A stretch of DNA of 51,822 nt from an uncultured Candidatus Saccharibacteria bacterium (GCA_964411375.1 CAYPKR010000001.1:304807-356628), one strand, 5' to 3'; positions 1,409-33,296 are shown, counted from the first letter of the stretch. The notes: a model not told the origin generated them from the letters alone. Made by a program: numbers and translations.

Positions 1409-1885
1409 ATGTCTCCACACACTCGACTTACAATAATTGCATCAATCTTCCTCGTGCTTATCGCGGGAGGATTTGCGTGGCACTATTTTTCTTCAAGTAG
1501 CGGAGCACAGATGCTTCCTAAGGCGGTACTCAAAATCAACGATGTTTCAGTGGTTGTCGACGTTGCCACCTCCGAAGCCGAACATGAGAAGGGACTATCG
1601 GGCAGAAAATCACTTTCTCCAAATAACGGCATGCTTTTCATTTTTCCCGTAGCTGGACGGTACGGATTTTGGATGCCGGACATGCATTTCTCGATCGACA
1701 TTATTTGGCTCGATGGTCATTTGAATGTTGTGCATATCGAAAAAAATGTAACGCCTGAATCATACCCAACCGTCTTCACCCCAGAAGAGAATGCAACGTA
1801 TGTACTCGAAGTCGTTTCCGGATTTGCCGAAGAGCATCAAATTAAAGTAGGCGATTCTGCCACATTCACGTTTGCCGCAGAATAA
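1409..1885 (+). CDS. DUF192-family protein with N-terminal membrane anchor
   Basis: GMLFIFP...GFWMPDMHFSIDIIWLD pattern of DUF192 (COG1430). ATG at 1409 follows a GAGG. The track start at 1394 is TTG and overlaps msrB. Confidence 0.8.
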   Translation: MSPHTRLTIIASIFLVLIAGGFAWHYFSSSSGAQMLPKAVLKINDVSVVVDVATSEAEHEKGLSGRKSLSPNNGMLFIFPVAGRYGFWMPDMHFSIDIIWLDGHLNVVHIEKNVTPESYPTVFTPEENATYVLEVVSGFAEEHQIKVGDSATFTFAAE

Positions 1886-1921
1886 CTTGCCTTAATTTTT
1901 TTCCGTGGCATAATATCAGCT

Positions 1922-2276
1922 GTCCGTACTGGATAGCTGCTCTACGTCGAAAGACATAGAGAGGAAAGTCCGAACACGCCCATATCCGAAAGGATATGGA
2001 GGACGGTAGCGGGTAACGCCCGTCGTGAGTAATCACAGGGATGCGAGCAGAGACGTCTAATCCGAGAGGAGAAGAATCCCCATAAGGATATTCCTGAAGG
2101 GATATTTCCGCCGAAATGCGGGAGTGAAACGGCTAAATTCCTACCTGCGTGCAAGGCCGTGCTTCGGAGTAATCCGAAGAGTGCCGCTTGAGGTTGTTGG
2201 CAACAACAATCCCAGATAAATAGCTGTCAGGTTTCCGAACGCGGAAACTCACAGAATTCGGCTTATAGGTACGAAC
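1922..2276 (+). ncRNA. rnpB: RNase P RNA (bacterial type A-like)
   Basis: Universally conserved GAGGAAAGTCCG (1961-1972) and ACAGAATTCGGCTTA (2251-2265). P1 pairing is cgtac 1925-1929 with gtacg 2269-2273. No credible ORF. Confidence 0.9.
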
Positions 2277-2285
2277 CGAAAAATG

Positions 2286-2316
2286 AAAAAGGACTCTTCA
2301 CTGAGTCCTTTTTCAT
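2286..2316 (+). terminator. intrinsic terminator after rnpB
   Basis: Hairpin ggactc / gagtcc with loop ttcact. A-run upstream and T-run downstream. Confidence 0.6.
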
Positions 2317-2418
2317 TTCATAACTTCACTATCTTGTTCATTTCCACATCTTGAATCGAACGGCGACCCTCTAGTACACTATAGGAAGTCGATTTCATTA
2401 TTCCGTTTATCAAAATGT

Positions 2419-4809
2419 ATGTCGTACCAAGAAGGAGAAGTTCTCTCCCATGAAATCGCACGTCCACATAGCCCATTAATAGATGGTATAACTGCAACCG
2501 CGCTCGCGCTCGCTGGAGGAGCGATGGCATTTTTTGTCATTCCTTCTGCGAATTTTCCGTTTCAGTTTACTAAGATCGCATTTATCTCTCTCGCCGCACT
2601 TGCGGGTCTCGCAGCGTACATTGTTGGACGCATGCAGGAGAGGAGAATACGATTTCCGAGGTCAATGCTCTTTTACGCAGTATGGCTTCTGCCGCTCGCG
2701 TACTTGCTTTCGGGAATTTTTTCGAGCAATGTCCAACTTTCTCTTGTTGGTGCAGAAGGTATCTCAAGCGATTCAGCAGTGTTCATGGCGATTCTCGCTA
2801 TTCTCTTTGCGGTCGTCATTTCATTTGCAAGAACCAAGGATAAAATTCTCCAGTATTATCTCGCCATCCTTGGCGGCGGTATTCTGCTTGCACTCCTCCA
2901 ACTCATCCGTCTCTTCGCTGATGGATTTACCCTTGGCGTTCTCCCCTCAAAAACAAGTTCGCTGATCGGTTCTTGGAATTCACTCTCATTGTTTTTCGGT
3001 CTTATCATCATTCTTTCCCTTATCACGCTCCTCGCTGTTCGTGTTGAAGGAATGCTTCGGTGGGTTATTGCCGCGGCGATCACCCTTTCCCTCATATTCC
3101 TCGCGGTCATTGATTACAATCTCACTTGGTGGCTCGTTGGAATCGCAGCACTCGGTGTATTCGTCTACAGTATTTCGTTCAACGGATTTGGTCGTGGCGG
3201 TCGGATGGTTTCCGGCATGTCATTCTCTTCGCTCATTGTTCTCGCGTTTGCAATCATCTTCATTATCTTCGGTACCAATCTCCAGACTGCGATTTCAAAT
3301 GCACTGAACATCCAATATGTTGAAGTTCGTCCGTCATGGCAGACAACCGTCGATATCGCGCGACAGTCGCTCAGTAACAATTTCCTCTTTGGTTCTGGCC
3401 CTGGCACATTTGGAAAAGAATGGCTTCTCCATAAACCAAATGGCGTAAATCAAACCAACTTCTGGAATGTTGATTTCCAGAGCGGCATTGGATTTATTCC
3501 ATCGACACTTGCGACAATGGGACTCATCGGCATCTTCGCATGGCTTCTGTTCTTCGGTACATTCCTTTGGACTGGTCTCAAAACACTCCTCCGTGGTGGT
3601 TCCGAAGATCCAATCGCATACTACTTATCGCTTTCATCGTTTGTCGGCGCACTCTATCTCTGGATCGCACAAATCTTCTACACACCAGGACCGGTAATGC
3701 TCGCACTCGCGTTTATCTTCACCGCGCTCTTTGTTGCATCTCTTAGACTGGTGAATGCAGGCGCAGAATGGGTGATTTCATTTATTGAAACACCGAAGCT
3801 TGGATTCCTTGCAGTTCTGTTCCTCACGATCGCATTCCTCGGAAGTGTTGCAGGAATTTTCTCAGTCGCAGAAACATACGCCGCAAGCAGTTACTATCAA
3901 ACGGCAATTACGTCCCTCAATACCGTAGGGGATTTGAGTGTAGGAGAAACGCACGTAATGCGCGCGCTTTCTTTCAACAAATCGGCTGAATACTATCGCC
4001 TCGTTGCAGCGATCAATGTCGCAAAGATCAATCAACTTGCGAATCAGCAAAATTTGACTCCCGATGAAGTACGCAACCAGTTCCAGGCAGCACTTGGAAA
4101 TGCAGTAACTGCAGCGCAATCTGCAACGCAGGTAGATCCAAATGATTACCAAAACTGGCTCGCACTTGCACAGGTATATCAGTCAGTTGTTCCGCTCAAA
4201 ATCCAAGGTGCATATGAGAACGCGATTGATTCGTACGAAAAAGCAATTGCACTCAATCCTCACGCGCCTTCGCTCTACTTGAATCAGGCAGAGCTCGCGG
4301 TCGTCAACAACAACATGCCTGAAGCAGAGAAATATGTGACGAAGGCGATTCAGGAAAAAAATAATTACACCGACGCAATCTTCCTCCTCTCGCAGATTCA
4401 GATCAATGAAGGAAAGATCGATGAAGCTTCGCAGGCAGTCGCAGCAGCAACGGTGATTGATCCAACAAATCCAGTTGCGTACTTCCAGCTCGGCGTCCTT
4501 CGCTACAGCAAGAAAGATTACACGACAACAATCGCAGCGCTTGAGCGAGCAGTTGCACTCACTCCAAACTACTCAAATGCACGCTACTTCCTGGGTCTCT
4601 CATACGCAGCGACCGGACGAAAGGATGACGCAATCGCGCAGTTTGTCGAAATCGAAAAATTGAATCCGGATAATCAAGAAGTAAAGACCGTTCTCGAAAA
4701 TCTCCGCGCGGGCAAGGAGCCATTCAGCCAGACCGCAGCAGCGAAAGTACAAGATTTGAAAGGACTTCCGGTTCCTGATCAAAAACCAGCCACGGACGAG
4801 GCACAGTAG
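2419..4809 (+). CDS. polytopic O-antigen ligase/polymerase-like membrane protein with C-terminal TPR repeats
   Basis: 796 aa with many TM segments. FLFGSGPGTFGKEW motif as in Wzy_C/O-antigen ligase proteins. The C-terminal ~300 aa has TPR-like periodicity (AIALNP, AVALTPNYSNARYFLGLSY). Confidence 0.7.
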   Translation: MSYQEGEVLSHEIARPHSPLIDGITATALALAGGAMAFFVIPSANFPFQFTKIAFISLAALAGLAAYIVGRMQERRIRFPRSMLFYAVWLLPLAYLLSGIFSSNVQLSLVGAEGISSDSAVFMAILAILFAVVISFARTKDKILQYYLAILGGGILLALLQLIRLFADGFTLGVLPSKTSSLIGSWNSLSLFFGLIIILSLITLLAVRVEGMLRWVIAAAITLSLIFLAVIDYNLTWWLVGIAALGVFVYSISFNGFGRGGRMVSGMSFSSLIVLAFAIIFIIFGTNLQTAISNALNIQYVEVRPSWQTTVDIARQSLSNNFLFGSGPGTFGKEWLLHKPNGVNQTNFWNVDFQSGIGFIPSTLATMGLIGIFAWLLFFGTFLWTGLKTLLRGGSEDPIAYYLSLSSFVGALYLWIAQIFYTPGPVMLALAFIFTALFVASLRLVNAGAEWVISFIETPKLGFLAVLFLTIAFLGSVAGIFSVAETYAASSYYQTAITSLNTVGDLSVGETHVMRALSFNKSAEYYRLVAAINVAKINQLANQQNLTPDEVRNQFQAALGNAVTAAQSATQVDPNDYQNWLALAQVYQSVVPLKIQGAYENAIDSYEKAIALNPHAPSLYLNQAELAVVNNNMPEAEKYVTKAIQEKNNYTDAIFLLSQIQINEGKIDEASQAVAAATVIDPTNPVAYFQLGVLRYSKKDYTTTIAALERAVALTPNYSNARYFLGLSYAATGRKDDAIAQFVEIEKLNPDNQEVKTVLENLRAGKEPFSQTAAAKVQDLKGLPVPDQKPATDEAQ

Positions 4810-4812
4810 GAA

Positions 4813-6483
4813 ATGGTTACACGATTCTTCAGTTTTTTGGGAAAAGAGATACGCGGCCTCCACGAGGCCGCGTATCTGTTGGCGATTTTCTCGCTGATCT
4901 CCCAAGTACTAGGGCTTCTTCGTGACCATTTGCTCGCATCCGCCTTCGGCGCAGGACAAACACTCGACATTTATTATGCCGCATTCAGGATTCCCGATTT
5001 TCTCTTTGTCTCGGTCGCTTCTCTTGTATCCGTCTACGTAATCATTCCGTTTATTTCTGAACGATTGACTGATAAGGAAGCGCTTCGCGTGTTTATGGGA
5101 AATGTTGCGACATGTTTCGGCATATTCATTGTTATCGTGTCGGGGATCGCATTTATTGCCGCTCCGCTCCTACTCTCGTGGTTATTTCCGACTTTGTATC
5201 TTGAGCGGGGAAGTGAACTTCTCTTGCTTACGCGCATTCTTCTCCTGCAACCAATCTTCCTTGGTTTCTCGAATCTTTTTGCGGGCGTTACGCAGGCATA
5301 TCACAAATTCATTCTCTATTCCGCAAGTCCTATTCTCTACAATGTTGGAATTATTCTCGGTGTCGTTCTTCTCTATCCTTTGTATGGAGTTGGTGGTCTT
5401 GCGATGGGTGTGGTCTTTGGCGCATTTCTTCATCTCTTGATTCAGGTTCCGTTCCTCATTCAAGAAGGCATCTTGCCATACCGAATACAAAAATTACGTA
5501 TTCGGGAAATGATGAATGTGGTAAAAACGTCCTTGCCGCGAACACTCGGACTTTCGCTCGGACAAATCGTACTTCTTGCGCTCATTTCGTTTGCTTCATC
5601 TCTTGTGCCTGGATCAATTGCAGTCTTTACGTTCGCATTCAACCTGCAGTCGGTGCCGCTTACGATAATTGGTGTCTCGTATTCAGTCGCTGCCTTTCCG
5701 ACTTTGGCTCGTCTTTTTTCAGAAGGCAATCGTGAAGCATTTTTTGAAAATATAGTTGCTGCGGCGCGCCACATTATTTTCTGGTCGTTTCCGGCGATAG
5801 TGTTTGTGATTGTGCTTCGTGCACAACTCGTTCGTGTAATCTTGGGAAGCGGTCAATTCGACTGGCCGGATACGAGACTTACTGCCGCAGCGCTTGCGCT
5901 GTTTGTCGTATCAATTGCCGCGCAAGCGCTCGTCCTGCTCATTTCTCGCGGATATTACGCGGCAGGGAAAACAAGCAAGCCACTTTCGGTTAATCTATTT
6001 ACTTCAATTGCGTCGGTCTTAGTTTCGTTTCTCTTGCTCCAATATTTCAACACTCATATCGGCTTTGAAGAATTTGTTGAGAATGTACTTCGCGTTGATG
6101 ATGTTACTGGTGCAGGAGTTTTGATGTTGCCGCTCGGCTTTTCGCTTGGCGCACTTCTCAATGCCATTGTTTTGCTATCACTGTTCCAAATTGATTTTGC
6201 CGATTTTTCTCCTGCGCTCACGGTAACTGTGTGGCAATCGAGCCTTGCCTCATTTGGTGGAGGAGTTGTCGCGTACCTCGGTCTGCAGATTTTTGATGAC
6301 CTTTTCAATATAAATACGTTCCTCGGAATTTTTCTCCAAGGTGCGCTTGCGGGACTCCTTGGACTTATCGCATGGATTGGTATTCTGGTACTTCTCAAAA
6401 ATCAGGAATTAAGAGAAACATGGAAGGCGCTTCGCTCAAGACTTTGGAAGGAACCGGTCGTTGTACCTGTTGAGGAGGTGTAA
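4813..6483 (+). CDS. murJ: lipid II flippase MurJ/MviN
   Basis: 556 aa, polytopic. N-terminal ISQVLGLLRDHLLASAFGAGQTLDIYYAAFRIPDFLF is the MurJ signature region. Confidence 0.85.
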   Translation: MVTRFFSFLGKEIRGLHEAAYLLAIFSLISQVLGLLRDHLLASAFGAGQTLDIYYAAFRIPDFLFVSVASLVSVYVIIPFISERLTDKEALRVFMGNVATCFGIFIVIVSGIAFIAAPLLLSWLFPTLYLERGSELLLLTRILLLQPIFLGFSNLFAGVTQAYHKFILYSASPILYNVGIILGVVLLYPLYGVGGLAMGVVFGAFLHLLIQVPFLIQEGILPYRIQKLRIREMMNVVKTSLPRTLGLSLGQIVLLALISFASSLVPGSIAVFTFAFNLQSVPLTIIGVSYSVAAFPTLARLFSEGNREAFFENIVAAARHIIFWSFPAIVFVIVLRAQLVRVILGSGQFDWPDTRLTAAALALFVVSIAAQALVLLISRGYYAAGKTSKPLSVNLFTSIASVLVSFLLLQYFNTHIGFEEFVENVLRVDDVTGAGVLMLPLGFSLGALLNAIVLLSLFQIDFADFSPALTVTVWQSSLASFGGGVVAYLGLQIFDDLFNINTFLGIFLQGALAGLLGLIAWIGILVLLKNQELRETWKALRSRLWKEPVVVPVEEV

Positions 6484-13344: not shown

Positions 13345-13390
13345 GGCACAAAATGAAAAATCCCCCTGAGGGGATTTTTCATTTTGTGCC
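13345..13390. terminator. 21-bp perfect hairpin, bidirectional terminator
   Basis: ggcacaaaatgaaaaatcccc / ggggatttttcattttgtgcc with loop ctga. Its last 4 nt overlap the 3' end of tRNA-Phe. Confidence 0.7.
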
Positions 13391-13460
13391 GAGGGGCGGA
13401 GTCGAACCGCCGACCCTTTGTTCTTCAGACAAATGCTCTAACCAACTGAGCTACCTCGGC
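13387..13460 (-). tRNA. tRNA-Phe (anticodon GAA)
   Basis: GCCGAGGTAGCTCAGTTGGTTAGAGC. Anticodon loop CTGAAGA, T-loop TTCGACT. Confidence 0.92.
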
Positions 13461-17733: not shown

Positions 17734-18804
17734 ATGACAAACTCAAAGAAGCTCGCAGCGCTCGCAGCGCTTCCAGCTCTCGCAATCGGTCTTTCAGCTG
17801 CTCCGGCACTCGCATTCGTCCCAGCAGGTGATGTCACAACAGTGAATGTGTCGAATTCGAATTCCGCATCGGTTTCAAATTCCGTCACACTCAACTCATC
17901 AACTGGCGGCAATACTGCAAATGGCGGTAACGGCGCAAAGGGCGGAAACGGAGGCAACTCTGGTTCTAACGCAGGAAACGGCGGCGAAGGCGGTAACGGC
18001 GGAAACGCAGGAAACGGTGGCGACGCAGACGGCGCTTTCGGTTCGACTCATCACCACTCATCTGACAACGTAGCAGTTGGTGGCGATGCAGGTAACGGCG
18101 GCGACGGCGCAAACGGCGGCAAGGGTGGCAACACCGGTGACGCTGGTATGGGTGGCAACGGTGGTATGGGCGGACTCGGCGGCATGATTGTCACCGGCAA
18201 CGCATCAGCTACTTCAGCTATCTCAAACGAAGTAAATCACAACTCAACGAAGGTAACCCTCAATGATGGTGATCCTGAGTACAACATTTTCGCAAAGGAG
18301 TCTTACTCTGCAAATTCAAGCTGGGGCCACAAGCACGGTTCGAATAATGAAAAGTGGAGCGATGTATACGTACAGACTGTTGTCCCTCAGAAGACACACG
18401 TCAACGTTTCTAACTCAAACTCTGCAGCAGTTTCAAACTCTGTATCAGGAGATGCTTCAACTGGCGACAACACTGCAAACGGTGGTAATGGCGCAAAGGG
18501 AGGCAAAGGAGGTAACTCTGGCTCAAACGCAGGTAATGGTGGCGATGGTGCTAACGGCGGCAAGGCTGGAAACGGCGGTGACGCAGAAGGCCACGGCACT
18601 GTTCTTGGCGGCATGGGTGGTAATGGCGGGGACGGCGCACACGGCGGTAAGGGCGGAAACACTGGCGACGGTGCAAACGCAGGAAACGGCGGTGATGGCG
18701 CAGAAGGCGGCGCAATTGCAACTGGCGATGCTGATCTCGTATCAGTTATTGCAAACGTCATCAACAAGAACATCACTCGCGTTCTCAAGAACGCAGGAAA
18801 CTAG
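17734..18804 (+). CDS. secreted Gly/Asn-rich repeat protein (two internal repeats)
   Basis: Signal peptide MTNSKKLAALAALPALAIGLSAAPALA. Two ~130-aa repeats each start VNVSNSNSAxVSNSV and end TG-x-A...N-x-N-x-T-x-V. The GGNGG-type low-complexity core is described in findings. Confidence 0.8.
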   Translation: MTNSKKLAALAALPALAIGLSAAPALAFVPAGDVTTVNVSNSNSASVSNSVTLNSSTGGNTANGGNGAKGGNGGNSGSNAGNGGEGGNGGNAGNGGDADGAFGSTHHHSSDNVAVGGDAGNGGDGANGGKGGNTGDAGMGGNGGMGGLGGMIVTGNASATSAISNEVNHNSTKVTLNDGDPEYNIFAKESYSANSSWGHKHGSNNEKWSDVYVQTVVPQKTHVNVSNSNSAAVSNSVSGDASTGDNTANGGNGAKGGKGGNSGSNAGNGGDGANGGKAGNGGDAEGHGTVLGGMGGNGGDGAHGGKGGNTGDGANAGNGGDGAEGGAIATGDADLVSVIANVINKNITRVLKNAGN

Positions 18805-18894
18805 TTGATTTCTCCTTGGAGCGGAACAGCAATGTTCCGCCCTTCGGATGCGGTTTGGAGCAGGCACTCAAAATCGCATAAGAGGGAAAAAAAG

Positions 18895-19440
18895 ATGAAA
18901 ACGATCTTCAGTACATTGATAGCGTTTCTTATGTTCGCACCGTTTGCATTTGCAGATTCTATTTCGGTGACCAACGAAGTTCATCTCAAAGCTTCATCTG
19001 GTGGAAATAGTTCAAACGGCGGCACCATTCATACCGGTTCGGTTTCTGCGTCAGTCGACATTGCCAACGACGAACCGAATCAGGACGTGCATACCTATAT
19101 TTCAACCACCACTGAAAGTTCGATCCACATCGATATTCAAAATGGTCGAAATGGTTCGGATGGTGCAAATGGGTCGGACGGCGAAGATGGAACAGACGGT
19201 ATGGATGGAGTTCCTGGAAAAGACGGAGTTTCTGGCGAGAAGAGTCAACCAATCGTCCATACTCATCCGATCATCAAAAATCCGACCACGGCAACTTCGA
19301 GTGCACCTCTCCATGCCTCGAGTTCGAACGCAGCAGCGATCCTTGCAGTCAAGGAAGAAGAAACGAAATCAATTACTCATTCGATACATCTTTTTTTCGA
19401 AGCAGTAACAAATTATGTCTGGTACTTCTTTACAAAATAA
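18895..19440 (+). CDS. secreted protein with one repeat module and a collagen-like GXY run
   Basis: AGAGGGA SD, then signal peptide MKTIFSTLIAFLMFAPFAFA. Eleven consecutive G-X-Y triplets are encoded at 19144-19242. Confidence 0.7.
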   Translation: MKTIFSTLIAFLMFAPFAFADSISVTNEVHLKASSGGNSSNGGTIHTGSVSASVDIANDEPNQDVHTYISTTTESSIHIDIQNGRNGSDGANGSDGEDGTDGMDGVPGKDGVSGEKSQPIVHTHPIIKNPTTATSSAPLHASSSNAAAILAVKEEETKSITHSIHLFFEAVTNYVWYFFTK

Positions 19441-19450
19441 TGATACTTTC

Positions 19451-22400
19451 ATGCGAAGATATTCGCGCGCTTTTGGCGTGCTTCTGATCGTTTCCCTGAT
19501 TGCGTTCGGAAATCCCGCAATCGTCCTTCTCGCGGATGAAGCTCCGGCGGATTCCACACCACCTGCTGAATCGACGACGCCACCCGCGGAGACTACTCCT
19601 CCAGCAGAAACAACACCACCAGCAGACACCACGCCTCCAGCGGGGAATGATGGTGCTTCTACTCCTTCTGTCGAAACGCCTGCTCCAGACACCACTACTA
19701 CTCCTGCCGACGCTCCATCAGATACTACTACCGTAACAACCGGCGACGCAGTTTCTGGTTCAGACACCACAACAACCGTAAACACCAACGAAACAAGCGT
19801 TGATCAAAATGCCCCAGCACCAACCGGTTCTGGTGGCGGAGCGCCAAGTGACGTTTCTCCTTCCGGTTCAGGAGGCGCTGCACCAACTGATCATCAAAAT
19901 CTTTCTGGAAATGCAAACGCCGAGACGAATGTCACCGTTGATAACGAAAATACTGCAACTGCATCAAACAATGTATCTTCTGATGCACAAACGGGAGGTA
20001 ATTCGGCAGAGAATACCGCAACGACAACTTCAGGAAACGCATCAGTCACGACCGGCAACGCATACGCATACGCAAACGTCGTTAATGTCTTGAACACCAA
20101 TATCTTTAACTCGCAAGGATTCTTCCTCTTTCTCAACTCATTCTTCGGTGGCGGAACGCTCGATCTCTCGAATCTTTCGTTTATGAATCCGACTGGCGGA
20201 CCATCGGGTACGACGTATTGTTCGCTCGGCGGTTGTGATGATGAAAACGATACGCAGTACGTTGCAATCAACAACAACAACGCAACAATCGACAATCAAG
20301 TCATTGTGCGTGCAGGTTCCGGTGGCAACACCGCAACTGCAGGAAACGGCGACGCATCAGTCACGACCGGCAACGCGTACGCTGCTGCAAACGTGGTGAA
20401 CGTTGCAAACACCAACTTTGTTGATTCCAACTACCTCCTTCTTTCGTTCAACAATTTTGGTGATATGAACGGAGACGTCATTCTCCCAACTGCTGATTTC
20501 TGGTCACATCTCTTTGGTTCCGGAAGCGGACTTGGGTCAGGCGGATCTCTTAATTCAACCAACACAAACACCGCAAACATCACGAACAATGTTGGTGCGG
20601 ATGCATCGAGCGGCAATAATTCAGCAACTGCAGATGGCGGTAGCGCATCAGTTCAAACCGGAAATGTGAGCGCAAATGGTGGCGTTACCAACGTCGTCAA
20701 TACCAATCAAGTTGGTGGAACGAGCGTATTCCTTCTCTTCCGCGTATTTGGTGATTGGGCAGGGGATGTCTTCAACGCGCCGCCTGGAATCGAGTGGGCT
20801 GAAACACCAAATGGTATTCAACTCTTCTCTGCAGACGGAACAGGAGATGGACTTTCAGCACTTCAGAATTTGAATTCAACAAATAGTTCGACCGCATCAA
20901 TCACCAATGACGTTCATGTGTATGCGCTGACGGGCGATAACCAGGCAAGTGCAAATGGCGGCAACGCATCGGTTCAAACGGGTAACGCATACGCGGCAGC
21001 AAACGTGATGAACATCGCAAACACGAATGTCATCGGTCGCAACTGGATCTTCGCAGTCTTCAACATCTTCGGAAATTGGCACGGCAATATTTCATTCGGT
21101 CAGCCGGATCTTTGGATCGGCGCGCTCGCAACCCCTGATACGACTGGTGAACTCGTCTCGGGAACCGATGTTGCATATCACTTCACCGTAACCAACCGCG
21201 GAAAAGCAACGGCAACGAATGTCCATGTTGATCTCAGTTACGATCACGCACACATTCCGTTTATCGATGGCAATTCATTTGATATCGGCACCCTCGCACC
21301 AGGTCAAACCGTTGAAGTTGTAAAGCATGCGACAATCACCAACTTGCCGCTTGGCGATACGCCGCTTCCAGTCACTGCACACGTTACTGAACACGAAACT
21401 GATGCAAACCCAGCAGACAACCAAGACGAAGTTACGATTGTCGGACAATTCTATGTAACCGGCGGATCATTCGGTGCTGCACAGGTAAGTGGCATTCCAG
21501 GGGGAGCAGGGTACGTTGATCCAGTTTGGAAAATTGTAAAGACTGTTTCTGCAACATCGACTACTGCATCATCAACGGTTGATTACAAAGTGGTCATCAA
21601 CAACGATGGCGCGCCTGCATACAGTGCAACCCTCTTCGATACCGTAACTGACCAAGACGGCAATATTATCTTCGAGCAATCGTGGGATCTTGGTACCGTA
21701 CCGCACGGTGAGGAAGATACCATCACGTATTCCGTCTTCTTCCACGACAATATTCCTGCGGGCGTCTACACCAACCATGCATTCGTCAAAGCATGGAGCC
21801 GCGATCCAAATCCAGGCAAAGGAGTTGAGTCTGATTCGCCAATTGCAACGGCAAGCGTCCGCATTCTCGGAGACGCGCCAATCGCAAAAGCAAACCGCTC
21901 ATGCGATCAATACATTCACAAAGCAATTCGAGCTGGACAGAAGAATGATCCAACCGAAGTGTCGAAACTCCAGAATTTCCTCTCTTCATTCGGTGGATTC
22001 TCCAATGTCCACGACACTGGCGTATACGATCAAGCAACGCAAGATGCAGTACGTCTCTTCCAGGATCAGCACAAGGATGATGTCTTGAATCCATGGGGGC
22101 TTGAAGGTCCAACCGGATACGTCTACATCACGACGAGAAAGAAGATTAATGATATCTACTGCCAAGGCGTTCGTGATTTCCCACTCACCTCAAACGATAC
22201 GACTGAAATCAATTCATTCCGCGGATACTTGCTCTCACTTCGTGCATCTCACGCTGATCGTGGAGTCAGACTCTTCGAACTTCCAACAGGGGATGCGACA
22301 AGCGAAGCAACTGGTGCAAATGACGTTGTCTCAACCAGCGGTCCAGGCGTATTCACCAGAACCTTGAATACTGCAAAAGACAGTGCAACAAACACTTCTG

Positions 22401-22540
22401 CTGCAGTCATCAACGCAACTGAAGCACTTGGTCTCATGGTTACAACCACTGCAGATGCGCTTCACGGAATCAAAGGTTGGATTCATGGATTCTCCGGTGT
22501 CCTCAAAAACAAACTTTCTGGATTCCATTTCGGAAAGTAA
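19451..22540 (+). CDS. giant secreted surface protein: PT-rich linker, 4 repeat modules, CARDB/DUF11-like domains, PG-binding-like domain
   Basis: Signal/anchor MRRYSRAFGVLLIVSLIAFG and a TPPAE-type repeat. Four modules end in TGNAYA-x-ANV-x-N-x-x-NTN. HFTVTNRGKATATNVHV-type beta-sandwich segments are present. C-terminal LQNFLSS...YDQATQDAVRLFQ resembles PG_binding_1. Confidence 0.8.
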   Translation: MRRYSRAFGVLLIVSLIAFGNPAIVLLADEAPADSTPPAESTTPPAETTPPAETTPPADTTPPAGNDGASTPSVETPAPDTTTTPADAPSDTTTVTTGDAVSGSDTTTTVNTNETSVDQNAPAPTGSGGGAPSDVSPSGSGGAAPTDHQNLSGNANAETNVTVDNENTATASNNVSSDAQTGGNSAENTATTTSGNASVTTGNAYAYANVVNVLNTNIFNSQGFFLFLNSFFGGGTLDLSNLSFMNPTGGPSGTTYCSLGGCDDENDTQYVAINNNNATIDNQVIVRAGSGGNTATAGNGDASVTTGNAYAAANVVNVANTNFVDSNYLLLSFNNFGDMNGDVILPTADFWSHLFGSGSGLGSGGSLNSTNTNTANITNNVGADASSGNNSATADGGSASVQTGNVSANGGVTNVVNTNQVGGTSVFLLFRVFGDWAGDVFNAPPGIEWAETPNGIQLFSADGTGDGLSALQNLNSTNSSTASITNDVHVYALTGDNQASANGGNASVQTGNAYAAANVMNIANTNVIGRNWIFAVFNIFGNWHGNISFGQPDLWIGALATPDTTGELVSGTDVAYHFTVTNRGKATATNVHVDLSYDHAHIPFIDGNSFDIGTLAPGQTVEVVKHATITNLPLGDTPLPVTAHVTEHETDANPADNQDEVTIVGQFYVTGGSFGAAQVSGIPGGAGYVDPVWKIVKTVSATSTTASSTVDYKVVINNDGAPAYSATLFDTVTDQDGNIIFEQSWDLGTVPHGEEDTITYSVFFHDNIPAGVYTNHAFVKAWSRDPNPGKGVESDSPIATASVRILGDAPIAKANRSCDQYIHKAIRAGQKNDPTEVSKLQNFLSSFGGFSNVHDTGVYDQATQDAVRLFQDQHKDDVLNPWGLEGPTGYVYITTRKKINDIYCQGVRDFPLTSNDTTEINSFRGYLLSLRASHADRGVRLFELPTGDATSEATGANDVVSTSGPGVFTRTLNTAKDSATNTSAAVINATEALGLMVTTTADALHGIKGWIHGFSGVLKNKLSGFHFGK

Positions 22541-22546
22541 GATTCA

Positions 22547-22597
22547 AAATTAAAAACAAAAAATACCGGCCGAGCCGGTATTTTTTGTTTTTAATTT
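22547..22597. terminator. 24-bp hairpin terminator
   Basis: aaattaaaaacaaaaaataccggc cga gccggtattttttgtttttaattt. Confidence 0.7.
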
Positions 22598-24126: not shown

Positions 24127-24513
24127 TTACAGTTCCTCGCTCTGGCGTTTCTTGTTCGTAAAAGGACTGGTATGCGTATGGCTCGCGACGACAGTGATGA
24201 AGCTGAGGATGATTCCGATGCCGACAAAGATGTAGATCATCGTGAATATTTTCCCGAGCGCCGTATGGGGTGCGAGATCTCCAAATCCGACGGTAGTCAG
24301 GGTCGTTACGGAAAAATACAGCGAATCGAGGATACTCCACCCCTCGACGCCGTTATAAAAAAGCGTTCCCGATACCAGAAGCACGATTACGAGGAAGAAG
24401 AGCGACTTGAACTCGGGATCCTTGAATCCGATCCAGATCGCGCGGATGAACCGCCAGAGAGTGAAGAAGAAGGGGAGCATGAGAGATTTTACTTCTCTGA
24501 GCCAGACCACCAC
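24127..24513 (-). CDS. minimal two-TM potassium channel
   Basis: Selectivity filter TTVGFGD between two TM helices. 128 aa with no cytoplasmic regulatory domain. The start is uncertain. Confidence 0.8.
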   Translation of the reverse strand: MVVWLREVKSLMLPFFFTLWRFIRAIWIGFKDPEFKSLFFLVIVLLVSGTLFYNGVEGWSILDSLYFSVTTLTTVGFGDLAPHTALGKIFTMIYIFVGIGIILSFITVVASHTHTSPFTNKKRQSEEL

Positions 24514-24752
24514 TCATGCAATGTTCGTCGATGTGTACGACTTGCTACCGTATCAGTAACATTATTCTTTTCGCTCATTACCGACATGTTTTTTCTGGTA
24601 TTTATTTCAATTTGCTCGAGAAGTTCTATAGCCTTGTTGATTTTCCAATACCATGTAACAAGTTCTCGAATTATAAAAAAGAAGAGAGCGAAGACAAAAA
24701 TATACATTAAGATATCGGACGGGCTATTTATGTGAAATTGATACAAATTCAT
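24489..24752 (-). CDS. hypothetical single-pass membrane protein
   Basis: 87-aa ORF with a TM helix (ILMYIFVFALFFFII). It overlaps the annotated start of the channel gene by 25 nt. Confidence 0.4.
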   Translation of the reverse strand: MNLYQFHINSPSDILMYIFVFALFFFIIRELVTWYWKINKAIELLEQIEINTRKNMSVMSEKNNVTDTVASRTHRRTLHEWWSGSEK

Positions 24753-24781
24753 TTTCTTAAATATAGTAACACTTAAGGCTT

Positions 24782-24856
24782 GGTCACAAGTAAATTTCCT
24801 GACGGAAATTTCTCGCGACCCCGGCTCGCCGTCGCTAGCGCGACAGGGCTCCGCCT
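24782..24856 (-). repeat. tRNA-trailer two-hairpin element, copy Y (downstream of tRNA-Val)
   Basis: Read on the minus strand it aligns with 33104-33177. Hairpin 1 is at 24829-24846. Hairpin 2 is at 24782-24820, 17 bp with one bulged A. Confidence 0.7.
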
Positions 24857-24923
24857 TTCGAGTCCCTTACCGCGCACTCTTCGCTCACTATCGTTCGCTT
24901 CGGTGCGCGGTAAGGGACTCGAA
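24857..24923. repeat. 21-bp perfect inverted repeat; one arm is the 3' end of tRNA-Val
   Basis: ttcgagtcccttaccgcgcac (24857-24877) is the exact reverse complement of 24903-24923. Spacer is 25 nt. Confidence 0.9.
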
Positions 24924-24976
24924 CCCCTGACCCTCTCAACGTCAATGAGATGCTCTACCAACTGAGCTAACCGCGC
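24904..24976 (-). tRNA. tRNA-Val (anticodon GAC)
   Basis: GCGCGGTTAGCTCAGTTGGTAGAGC. Anticodon loop TTGACGT, T-loop TTCGAGT, acceptor ACCGCGC A. Confidence 0.92.
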
Positions 24977-25045
24977 ATTTGAACACATATTCCGTCTTCA
25001 GAATACGGCAACAGTACATGGTTTTTTGCTATTATTCAAGCCACT

Positions 25046-25663
25046 ATGGAGCGGCTCATATTCGCAGAAAAAGGTCCTTCGGCGATCAAAATGTATAAAA
25101 GAGCGGTCGAAGTTCTTCAAGATGGCGGAGTCATTATTTATCCGACCGACACGATATATGGCTTCGGCGTTGATGGGGAAGACGAAGAAGCGCTCGAGCG
25201 TTTGTATTCAATAAAAAAGCGCGATCCAAAAAAACCACTGCTTGTCGTGGTTTCTGATATCGAAATGGCACGAACCTACGTCACATTTACGCCCGAAGCT
25301 AAGCGGCTCGTCGATACATTTCTGCCGGGCGCACTTACCTTGGTGCTTCCACGAAATCCTGATGCACCGGAGCGATTTCTTCCGAATATTCAAACAATTG
25401 GTATTCGAATTCCGCAAAATCCTTTCTGCCTCAATCTTGTCCGCCAATTTGGAAAACCAATCACCTCAACGAGCGTGAATCATGCCGGTGAAGATCCACT
25501 CACCGATCCCGATGATATCGAAACGCTTTTTGGCGATGAAGCAGATCTCTTGATTGATGTGGGAAATATTCAAAACCCTCCATCAACGATCGTTGATTTT
25601 TCAGGTGAAACCCCCAAGGTGCTTCGCGAAGGTAAAATTACTGCAGAAGAATTGAATCTATAA
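25046..25663 (+). CDS. tsaC: L-threonylcarbamoyladenylate synthase (YrdC/Sua5 domain)
   Basis: GGVIIYPTDTIYGFGVD and KPITSTSVN motifs of the YrdC fold. Confidence 0.88.
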   Translation: MERLIFAEKGPSAIKMYKRAVEVLQDGGVIIYPTDTIYGFGVDGEDEEALERLYSIKKRDPKKPLLVVVSDIEMARTYVTFTPEAKRLVDTFLPGALTLVLPRNPDAPERFLPNIQTIGIRIPQNPFCLNLVRQFGKPITSTSVNHAGEDPLTDPDDIETLFGDEADLLIDVGNIQNPPSTIVDFSGETPKVLREGKITAEELNL

Positions 25664-26079: not shown

Positions 26080-26229
26080 AATATTCGTCGATTAGATTTC
26101 TAATTTGATAGAACTGTAGCAGAATCCCTCTGTAGATCCAATGAAGACGAATGGCTAAAAATGTTCCCAAATAAAAAACAAAAAATACGGCACATGCCGT
26201 ATTTTTTGTTTCACCGATTATATTCTGAT

Positions 26230-32984: not shown

Positions 32985-33059
32985 GGCCCTATCGTCTAAC
33001 GGTTAGGACAGCGCCCTTTCACGGCGTAAATGGGGGTTCGATTCCCCCTAGGGTCACCA
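32985..33059 (+). tRNA. tRNA-Glu (anticodon TTC), CCA encoded
   Basis: GGCCCTATCGTCTAACGGTTAGGAC. Anticodon loop CTTTCAC, T-loop TTCGATT, ends TAGGGTC A CCA. Confidence 0.92.
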
Positions 33060-33065
33060 AGTAAT

Positions 33066-33091
33066 GAAAAAGCAAACTGCTTTGCTTTTTC
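33066..33091. repeat. 11-bp hairpin B after tRNA-Glu
   Basis: gaaaaagcaaa ctgc tttgctttttc. Confidence 0.8.
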
Positions 33092-33103
33092 GAACATTGG
33101 TGA

Positions 33104-33177
33104 AGCCGGAGGCATGTCGTTCTGCGACAGCCGAGGCGGGGTCGCGGAAATTGTATGTAATAACAATTATCCGTGAC
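33104..33177 (+). repeat. tRNA-trailer two-hairpin element, copy X (downstream of tRNA-Glu)
   Basis: Aligns with the minus strand of 24782-24856. Hairpin 1 is tgtcg/cgaca (33115-33129). Hairpin 2 is at 33141-33177, 13 bp with one bulged A. Confidence 0.7.
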
Positions 33178-33296
33178 ACATGAATAAAATAGAAAAGCCC
33201 CAGTTCTTCCGGGGTCTTTCTATTTTTGGTGTGATTGACCATCGTAATAAAAAAAGAATCACCCTCACGGGGCGATTCATGCATTTGCTCAGTCAA

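Follow-up and report, generated by a model that had tools for sequence, protein, structure and literature searches.

A family of structured modules bearing copies of tRNA-gene 3' ends, represented by two tRNA-linked elements in a Candidatus Saccharibacteria genome segment

We analyzed a stretch of 51,822 nucleotides, here called the window, from an uncultured Candidatus Saccharibacteria bacterium (GCA_964411375.1, CAYPKR010000001.1:304807-356628), in which a noncoding element of two hairpins stands behind two different tRNA genes. The copy that we call X lies downstream of tRNA-Glu(ttc) (32985 to 33059, plus strand; called by ARAGORN and, at 64.6 bits, by the Rfam tRNA model), whose CCA is encoded, and the copy that we call Y lies downstream of tRNA-Val(gac) (24902 to 24976, minus strand; ARAGORN and Rfam), in which T54 is position 24923 and A73 is position 24904. 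The cores, 33105 to 33177 (plus) for X and 24782 to 24855 (minus) for Y, begin 45 to 46 nt past their tRNA ends and share the tRNA strand in both cases, a placement that an earlier reading of the window from its letters alone (the sequence-only reading) had described correctly. X and Y point in opposite directions at the two ends of an 8.3-kb segment that holds their tRNAs.

Each core is built of a first hairpin (P1), a conserved G-rich junction, and a second hairpin (P2). In X, P1 (33105 to 33137, plus) has an outer stem of 3 bp, an internal loop GGA/GA, an inner stem of 3 bp, and an apical hairpin, as given by the fold and by family covariation in both basal helices; the junction (33138 to 33140, plus) is invariant in X, Y, the relative L004 (we designate loci by L numbers throughout), and most family members; and P2 (33141 to 33177, plus; fold, and a covariance-model match of 97.5 bits) contains G.U pairs and a bulged A at 33169 and has no flanking tRNA-derived arms. 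In Y, P1 (24823 to 24855, minus; fold and covariation) reads GGC-GGA-GCC ... GGC-GA-GCC and is followed by a GG junction and P2 (24782 to 24822, minus; fold, and a match of 96.2 bits) with its bulged A at 24791. What the sequence-only reading had taken for a direct repeat that bracketed the first hairpin and co-varied between the copies is really the two strands of the P1 base: an outer 3-bp stem, a conserved internal loop G-N-A/G-A, and an inner stem. It had also overlooked a spacer hairpin, H0, between tRNA-Glu and X (33067 to 33090, plus; AAAAAGCAAA-CTGC-TTTGCTTTTT, read from the sequence), which carries the family motif GCAAACTGCTTTGC, as well as a 5' arm upstream of the Y core (24857 to 24877, minus; GTGCGCGGTAAGGGACTCGAA) whose 21 nt are a perfect reverse complement of tRNA-Val positions 54 to 74 (0 mismatches in the arm search). 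Arms that mimic the tRNA end in this way, which likewise went unnoticed, are the defining feature of the family; the 3' arm of Y (24766 to 24782, minus) is decayed, reading CAAGCCTTAAGTGTTAC where the intact arms of L044, L069, L008, and L013 read CGAGTCCCTTACCGCGCAC. Past X and outside the element lies a bidirectional terminator-like hairpin (33188 to 33225, no strand assigned; called as a terminator at 33198 to 33214 by the terminator scan), which had been set apart correctly. Beside Y, TTGTGA at the 3' end of P2 and a TATATT downstream of it (24760 to 24789, minus) form a promoter-like match ahead of an 87-amino-acid open reading frame (ORF) and an ion-channel gene, possibly by coincidence.

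The homology of the two copies is robust. Aligned without gaps, X 33103 to 33180 and Y 24780 to 24857 (minus) share 49 of 78 positions, against 19.4 ± 3.9 for all 78-mers of the window and 37 for the next best match; the gapped alignment in the sequence-only reading was right about the homology, while the 5' half aligns without any gap. The exact 10-mer CGGGGTCGCG occurs within the window at X and Y only. The folds of X and Y (−35.7 and −42.4 kcal/mol, z = −4.6 and −5.1; 0 of 200 shuffles as stable) agree on an identical two-hairpin layout with the bulged A at the equivalent spot, and the antisense strands fold clearly worse because the G.U pairs turn into C.A. A check of ORFs in the window found no credible one over X or Y, as had been claimed. 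Nor does either copy belong to a named RNA family: at the gathering score, Rfam 15 finds only seven tRNAs and the RNase P RNA in the whole window, the X and Y regions give only noise below 26 bits at E ≤ 10, and across 17 loci with complete modules the matches are tRNAs and one group I intron located elsewhere, with nothing on the module. A group I catalytic intron in L089 (4331 to 4534, plus; 58.6 bits) is near tRNAs and a module copy. A literature search found no description of the module, which is weak negative evidence, and in Patescibacteria it is apparently undescribed.

The TsaD protein encoded next to Y places the window in the Patescibacteria, its closest homologues being 90%, 76%, and 69% identical. 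In the 69% relative (GCA_964567265, L001), tRNA-Val is followed by an identical module architecture in which the P1 and P2 sequences are entirely different and the junction motifs ..ACTCGAA, GGGGTCG, and GTGACC are kept; there is no element past its tRNA-Glu, and the Val module is retained despite a rearranged locus. There, tRNA-Val and its module are inverted relative to TsaD and the ion-channel gene; with the inverted placement of X and Y, this suggests that modules may mark or promote local rearrangements. In the 90% relative (L004), the element behind tRNA-Val combines a P1 that matches that of Y with a P2 near-identical to that of X. The P2 that X has in common with the Val-linked copy of this closest relative points to copying or gene conversion between the Glu and Val loci since the lineages of the window and L004 split. 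Scanning one genome per species with the 3' 23-mer of tRNA-Val yielded 70 loci, nearly all of them from Patescibacteria. A subset has an element past tRNA-Val; in several of these elements, the closing GTGAC leads into CGAGTCCCTTACCGCGCAC, which repeats the 3' end of tRNA-Val itself in direct orientation, and the inverted Val arm seen in Y recurs in L004, L062, L055, L025, L036, and L001.

A covariance model (R1) built from X, Y, and L004 reveals how large the family is. It made 22 matches at E < 0.01 in the 70 genome loci, behind tRNA-Val, Glu, Arg, Ser, and Leu and in some cases in tandem arrays. A scan of metagenomes with a core pattern found at least 120 contigs, and on the contigs listed R1 matched at least 115 copies at E < 1e-3 in 100 loci. 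The pattern fixes 21 core bases, so that this set is biased toward intact cores; the taxonomy of the contigs is unchecked, and the E-values are rough. Overall we count more than 130 copies on Patescibacteria genome and metagenome contigs. The sequence-only reading had held that a lack of further copies and of compensatory changes would point to a one-off duplication, and its proposed search has instead returned an abundance of both. That the similarity of X and Y is a local duplication or chance, as the presence of only two copies in 52 kb might suggest, has a probability that we regard as practically nil: the homologous copies lie in unrelated contigs and covary, and the 49 of 78 identities far exceed the background maximum of 37.

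What the family conserves is a two-hairpin core of P1 with its G-N-A/G-A internal loop, the G-rich junction, and P2 with a conserved G.U and the bulged A. In the metagenome alignment, 95.9% of cells in the model's three helices are paired, and changes on both sides are seen in 17 of 20 pairs (530 cells). The covariation score is 0.574, against 0.05 to 0.09 when the partners are slid by 1 to 3 columns, and 0 of 500 shuffles reach the observed value; alignments fitted to R1 do favor its structure. The pattern fixed part of the P2 base, and the invariant G.U there is thus partly imposed by the search, whereas P1 and upper P2 were free and the pattern-independent genome set has the identical conserved G.U. 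Such G.U pairs are possible in the tRNA-sense strand only. The junction motif TCGAA is replaced by GAGAA in 19 of 117 matches, and GAGAA opposite CGA would form tandem G.A pairs. H0, a small hairpin with the loop CUGC and the motif AACTGCTT, often interrupts the 5' arm or sits in the spacer: AACTGCTT occurs within 90 nt upstream in 30 of 117 matches, and the longer motif GCAAACTGCTTTGC recurs upstream of the cores in L024, L075, L010, L167, and L176. A second core, type B, is unrelated to this type A and stands on the same arm scaffold in L013, L051, L008, and L186, and in L093 too; its direct arm begins at T54, not C56. Type B reads ..GACCTTGYGAG..hairpin..GGTGTACTGAANCTGTAAG in L013 (minus strand) and L051 (plus strand), after tRNA-Val or tRNA-Ser. 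An additional hairpin such as AGCGTACTCGCGG is optional: in eight loci (L116, L158, L145, L148, L107, L099, L156, and L081) it follows the CGA of the direct arm and so lies within the T-loop remnant, ahead of the T-stem and acceptor copy.

The link to tRNA genes is systematic. Among the 117 matches with at least 300 nt of upstream sequence, 97 (83%) are preceded within 300 nt by a tRNA on their own strand, the median distance being 63 nt, compared with 4% for random positions. The modules are always on the tRNA strand, the tRNA itself is intact, and all 20 amino-acid specificities are represented. In a complete module the order is tRNA, spacer hairpin, inverted complement of positions 54 to ~73, core, and direct copy of C56 to ~77, and across all 20 specificities the arms match whichever tRNA adjoins. 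In 52 of 84 modules the stretch of 18 nt behind GTGAC agrees with C56-73 of the adjacent tRNA at 17 or more of the 18 positions. The 12 nt of the 5' arm beside the core have at most one mismatch to their own tRNA in 49 of 102 modules, as against 2.8% for other tRNAs, and their T-loop part tracks the local T-loop (ACTCGAA, ATTCGAA, AATCGAA, AGTCGAA, GATCGAA, AATTGAA). Complete modules fold to a three-way junction closed by a stem that repeats the acceptor and T stems of the neighboring tRNA; in the window this closing stem is absent, Y having lost its 3' arm and X being armless. No module resembles a cloverleaf to the tRNA finders, since ARAGORN and the Rfam tRNA model call the upstream tRNA only.

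Usually, tRNA and module are parted by a terminator-like hairpin that is U-rich on its 3' side. One alternative reading takes the element for a mere structure for termination or 3' processing of tRNA genes, immobile and similar through convergence or the descent of flanks. That the element is always 3' of tRNAs on the same strand would suit such a structure, as would the terminator of tRNA-Phe in the window, whose stem reaches 5 nt into the tRNA. We nevertheless consider this highly improbable. The core is without a U tract, the scan around Y (24500 to 25150) called no terminator, and the terminator of X is the separate hairpin at 33198 to 33214, other members of the family likewise having a separate terminator before or after the core. 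Conserved unpaired nucleotides and homology across 20 tRNA types speak against convergence, and arrays, cargo inserts, and target duplications would be left unexplained. The suggestion of a terminator module in the sequence-only reading is accordingly unsupported, and of the other two the footprint of a tRNA-targeting element fits best, with target-derived repeats of the tRNA 3' end standing at the borders of complete copies, and an RNA cotranscribed with the tRNA is possible. The tRNA-Phe terminator itself (13345 to 13390, behind tRNA-Phe at 13386 to 13460, minus) is a perfect 21-bp palindrome whose stem takes in the last 5 nt of the tRNA (GGCAC/GTGCC), and looks like a small-scale version of the palindrome that tRNA end and inverted arm form in the modules.

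Several comparisons bear on insertion and spread. Where no module is present (L060, L032, L015), the ATG of TsaD lies 0 to 10 nt past tRNA-Val, and where one is present (L069), it lies 3 nt past the direct (3') arm. The direct repeat starts at C56 and has a modal length of 21 to 23 nt, ending at about position 77; some duplications are longer and run into the spacer (28 to 75 nt). Tandem units are common (L059, L089, L143, L187, L113), and L113 has a module after each of four tRNAs in a one-strand cluster. Within a contig, cores at different tRNAs are 70 to 86% identical (Arg/Gly in L083, Pro/Gly in L167, Thr/Trp in L152, and Lys/Cys in L113), whereas cores on different contigs have a median identity of ~40% even at the same tRNA. 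The Arg module of L083 has a 5' arm of the wrong T-loop type and a perfect 3' arm, as though some of the left side moved along with the element and the right side were drawn from the target. Rarely, modules hold cargo: in L044 a 3.3-kb segment (1664 to 4950) separates tRNA-Ser(gct) from a module of 5' arm, core, and 3' arm, with an arm that repeats the tRNA-Ser(gct) end without a mismatch. Encoded in this segment are four ORFs without a Pfam match and an HNH homing endonuclease with homing-endonuclease-associated repeats. A smaller cargo insert of 0.8 kb occurs in L101. In L025 (2560 to 2775, plus), a 5' fragment of tRNA-Glu ending at the T-stem (..GAGAGGGG) is followed by a hairpin, a copy of the core, and then an intact tRNA-Glu, an arrangement that is evidence of rearranged tRNA fragments around modules.

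From these data we favor, at roughly even odds (probability about 0.5), an interpretation in which X and Y are partly degenerate resident copies of a noncoding, nonautonomous insertion module specific to the 3' ends of tRNA genes, with a tRNA-end-mimicking stem that matches the target, allows the module to be removed harmlessly from tRNA transcripts, or does both. It is best supported that the modules form a large family restricted to Patescibacteria as far as sampled, with the metagenome contigs being of unchecked taxonomy. On the insertion reading, Y is an old copy with a perfect inverted arm and a decayed direct arm, and X is an armless copy of H0 and core. The module would insert into, or right behind, the segment from T-loop to 3' end of a tRNA gene, and insertion would duplicate ~22 bp of target in the manner of a target-site duplication or att repeat, so that tRNA function is preserved. 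It would then move, or be copied or homogenized, between the tRNA genes of one genome. The active form would be a single strand of tRNA-sense polarity, either a transcript or top-strand DNA, since the conserved structure of that strand implies that the single strand is what gets recognized. This strand would fold to the three-way junction, and its closing stem, as a mimic of the acceptor and T stems next door, could supply the target match to a putative trans-acting machinery or, alternatively, let tRNA-processing enzymes cut the transcript of the element off the tRNA.

A direct repeat from the T-loop to just past the tRNA end, with the tRNA restored, also evokes integrative elements. On this account the modules would be scars or miniature derivatives of integrase-driven islands or phages in tRNA T-loops, their repeats attL and attR and their core an attP-proximal region, perhaps folded as single-stranded DNA (cf. 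CTX-phage and attC), with a tyrosine recombinase encoded elsewhere. One class of tRNA integration sites reportedly has just such a repeat starting in the T-loop. The 3.3-kb cargo version bounded by the same repeats, the tandem accretion, and a duplicated flank that is 75 to 90% identical, as if the left copy had come from a related donor genome, would all follow. We nonetheless judge this account unlikely. About 140 modules and their surroundings, as well as the L044 insert, contain no integrase, the inserts measure only 120 to 230 nt, and just one weakly "viral" contig bears the element. Moreover, a single core family occurs at no fewer than 20 tRNA specificities with matching arms, and near-identical cores occur at different tRNAs within one genome, which a carried attP cannot explain without chimeric tRNAs. 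A phage origin was considered in its own right and rejected: one of six pattern matches on viral contigs was real (L075), and that contig is weakly "viral" with cellular genes as neighbors.

The state of the arms in resident copies bears on what maintains them. About 40% of 3' arms are decayed while their cores are intact. At positions where a 3' arm departs from its tRNA, pairing of the 5' arm follows the tRNA in 102 cases and the 3' arm in 8, and this lack of compensation implies that pairing between the arms is not what keeps the 5' arm in resident copies; the inverted arm is instead held to the sequence of the live tRNA, and Y is a case in point. Its upkeep could be the work of gene conversion within the palindrome of tRNA end, spacer, and arm, or of selection. 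CCA stands past the 3' arm in 37% of modules and past the module-bearing tRNAs in 20%, a marginal difference (p = 0.03 to 0.06), and the integrity of the arms has no link to the presence of a downstream tRNA (odds ratio 1.8, p = 0.31).

These arms could alternatively belong to a host-beneficial noncoding RNA, scaffolded on tRNA structure and cotranscribed with the tRNA, the main rival account, which we hold possible and no better than tentative. RNase P and RNase Z would cut the arm stem, CCA would be added, and an RNA of ~110 to 180 nt would display P1 and P2; the copy number would stem from duplication and not mobility, and X and Y would be decayed or arm-independent versions. Strong covariation, the conserved G.U, bulged A, and internal loop, and a fold stability biased to the sense strand are what one would expect of such an RNA, as are arms that duplicate the acceptor and T stems of the tRNA next door and a 3' arm that retains its identity while the neighboring duplicated flank diverges. 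The excess of CCA (p = 0.03), the L113 modules interleaved with four one-strand tRNAs and probably cotranscribed with them, two unrelated cores and an optional third hairpin on one scaffold, and the tandem-G.A variant of the junction point the same way. It fits poorly, however, with the U-rich terminator-like hairpin that usually parts tRNA from module, with the many decayed 3' arms beside intact cores and 5' arms that pair with the tRNA version, with the persistence of armless copies such as X, and with an arm integrity that is unlinked to a downstream tRNA. This account and the insertion-module interpretation are compatible, not exclusive.

Several observations weigh against the insertion-module interpretation. 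When the 393 ORFs within 2.5 kb of cores were clustered by BLAST, housekeeping families alone recurred, and no transposase, integrase, HUH nuclease, or reverse transcriptase was among the recurring ones. No recombinase, transposase, HUH nuclease, or reverse transcriptase was found near X or Y either, nor in the L044 insert, which has only its HNH endonuclease and uncharacterized ORFs. We know of no transposition or integration mechanism that makes direct and inverted target-specific copies together, and we observed no excised or circular form and no population-level pair of filled and empty alleles. The metagenome set is, as noted, skewed to intact cores by its 21-base pattern. In L087, L121, L132, and L137/L169 the 3' arm keeps 18/18 identity next to a duplicated flank that has diverged by 10 to 25%; an arm kept beside a diverged flank is not the behavior of a neutral insertion scar and points to selection or gene conversion on the 3' arm, possibly through a host-level RNA function. 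The recurrent GAGAA variant, finally, looks like an RNA structural motif rather than the outcome of templated copying.

With more reserve, we propose that the modules are either a new class of tRNA-mimicking element, without a protein of its own and able to settle at any tRNA gene because its arms are re-templated from the target each time it inserts or are quickly matched to it, or an RNA family of ~20 members that mimic acceptor arms. A new class would imply a trans-acting, structure-guided insertion machinery at the T-loop or recombination guided by RNA or single-stranded DNA; a family of mimics would imply one conserved RNA domain, tRNA-like processing, and a function specific to Patescibacteria. 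Patescibacteria have tiny genomes with ~40 to 50 mostly single-copy tRNA genes, and a structured module at tRNA genes of every specificity, with none inactivated, is a conspicuous trait of their genome biology. If the modules are mobile, their start at the T-loop, ~22-bp duplication, and inverted target-specific arm fit no known transposon or integrase system and could reveal a new way of recognizing DNA or RNA targets through structure and base pairing. If they are RNA genes, they are a natural tRNA scaffold showing a conserved domain and a major noncoding RNA family for a phylum in which, to our knowledge, almost none have been described. In practice, the modules account for contig breaks and spurious ORF calls beside tRNAs in metagenome-assembled genomes of Patescibacteria, and their partial tRNA copies can mislead predictors of genomic islands that rely on tRNA fragments.

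Among known systems, the tRNA-integrating islands and prophages of the T-loop class with their tyrosine integrases, together with the cis-mobilizable elements (CIMEs), are alike in the flanking direct repeat that starts in the T-loop, the functional tRNA, the fixed orientation, and the tandem accretion; the module differs in that no integrase was found, in its short inserts of 120 to 230 nt, in its additional inverted copy of the tRNA end, and in a structured, conserved core of which one family serves every tRNA specificity. The RtT repeats of the Escherichia coli tyrT operon (RF00391) are units downstream of a tRNA that each end in its last ~19 nt. The module shares with them repeats behind a tRNA gene that bear a copy of its end, but its sequence and structure are unrelated and without a match in Rfam, and RtT is a single enterobacterial locus without an inverted arm. 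The REP/BIME/REPIN, BOX, Correia, and ERIC families are, like the module, small, noncoding, intergenic hairpin repeats that form arrays and are homogeneous within a genome, but the module is tied to tRNA 3' ends, its arms come from the target and are not inverted repeats belonging to its own termini, its duplication measures 21 to 23 nt, and no RAYT or other transposase was found.

The attP hairpin of CTX-phage, the attC sites of integrons, and the T-shaped hairpins of parvoviruses resemble the module in a folded strand whose stem reproduces or pairs with the target duplex, in a branched tip, and in an extrahelical base. Unlike them, the module has no Xer or IntI boxes (the attC R' consensus GTTRRRY is unmatched) and no associated recombinase, and its DNA form is putative. 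With mascRNA of MALAT1, viral tRNA-like elements, and the tRNA-like domain of tmRNA it shares a mimic of acceptor and T stems, which by analogy could recruit RNase P, RNase Z, and the CCA-adding enzyme; it differs in copying the neighboring tRNA exactly, in replacing the T-loop with two hairpins, and in matching none of the Rfam models of tRNA and tRNA-like structures. Domains V and VI of group II introns, as in 5'-truncated intron remnants, likewise form a pair of adjacent 3'-terminal hairpins, of which the second has an AC terminus and a bulged A ~8 nt short of the 3' end; the module often stands right behind a terminator-like hairpin, and class C introns insert behind terminator hairpins. 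The model Intron_gpII is unmatched at E ≤ 10, however, the P1 loop is 3x2 and not the catalytic AGC/CGC triad and 2-nt bulge of domain V, and the module has neither intron body nor reverse transcriptase.

A number of specific candidates were tried and rejected. The test for group II domains V/VI was prompted by a bulged A lying 8 nt short of the 3' end, an AC terminus, and a location behind terminators; it gave no RF00029 match at E ≤ 10 in the X and Y regions, the G-N-A/G-A loop of P1 has the wrong architecture, and the likeness to domain VI ends with the bulged A. The core motifs of the hammerhead, other small ribozymes, the T-box, and the K-turn are not present; in the G-N-A/G-A loop a single bulged base lies between two G.A pairs, while in a K-turn a 3-nt bulge precedes them. 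A primer-binding site for mature tRNA, or reverse-transcribed tRNA, is excluded as the source of the arms because the 5' arm runs on as the complement of the genomic flank and not of CCA, as in the genes without CCA at L106, L150, L160, and L112; a "CA" past position 73 is general in these tRNA genes. An integron attC or Xer-type att site does not fit either, the junctions TCGAA|core and GTGAC|CGA departing from GTTRRRY and no integrase being linked. The flanking inverted sequences are locus-specific copies of the adjacent tRNA, and no transposase was found, contrary to what a miniature inverted-repeat transposable element (MITE) or insertion sequence (IS) derivative would show. REP/REPIN elements with a RAYT are likewise rejected, as 83% of copies are tRNA-linked and the 393 nearby ORFs contain no HUH- or RAYT-like cluster. 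TIGR-Tas guide arrays are made of 36-nt units, each with two spacers of ~9 nt set between short edge and loop repeats, and adjoin a gene with a Nop domain (PMC12045711); the architecture of our unit is unrelated, and there is no Tas-like neighbor among the same 393 ORFs.

The remaining observations concern other parts of the window. A bacterial class A RNase P RNA is encoded at 1921 to 2281 (plus; 116.5 bits). Several families of internal direct repeats, with units of 89 to 192 nt and Gly/Asn-rich coding, occupy 17800 to 21100 (plus), in and before an ORF of 1,041 amino acids (19415 to 22540) that probably encodes a repetitive surface protein. Two A/T-flanked terminator palindromes of the AAAAAATACCGGC..GCCGGTATTTTTT type, at 22547 to 22597 and 26169 to 26211, are 74% alike and lie 3.6 kb apart.

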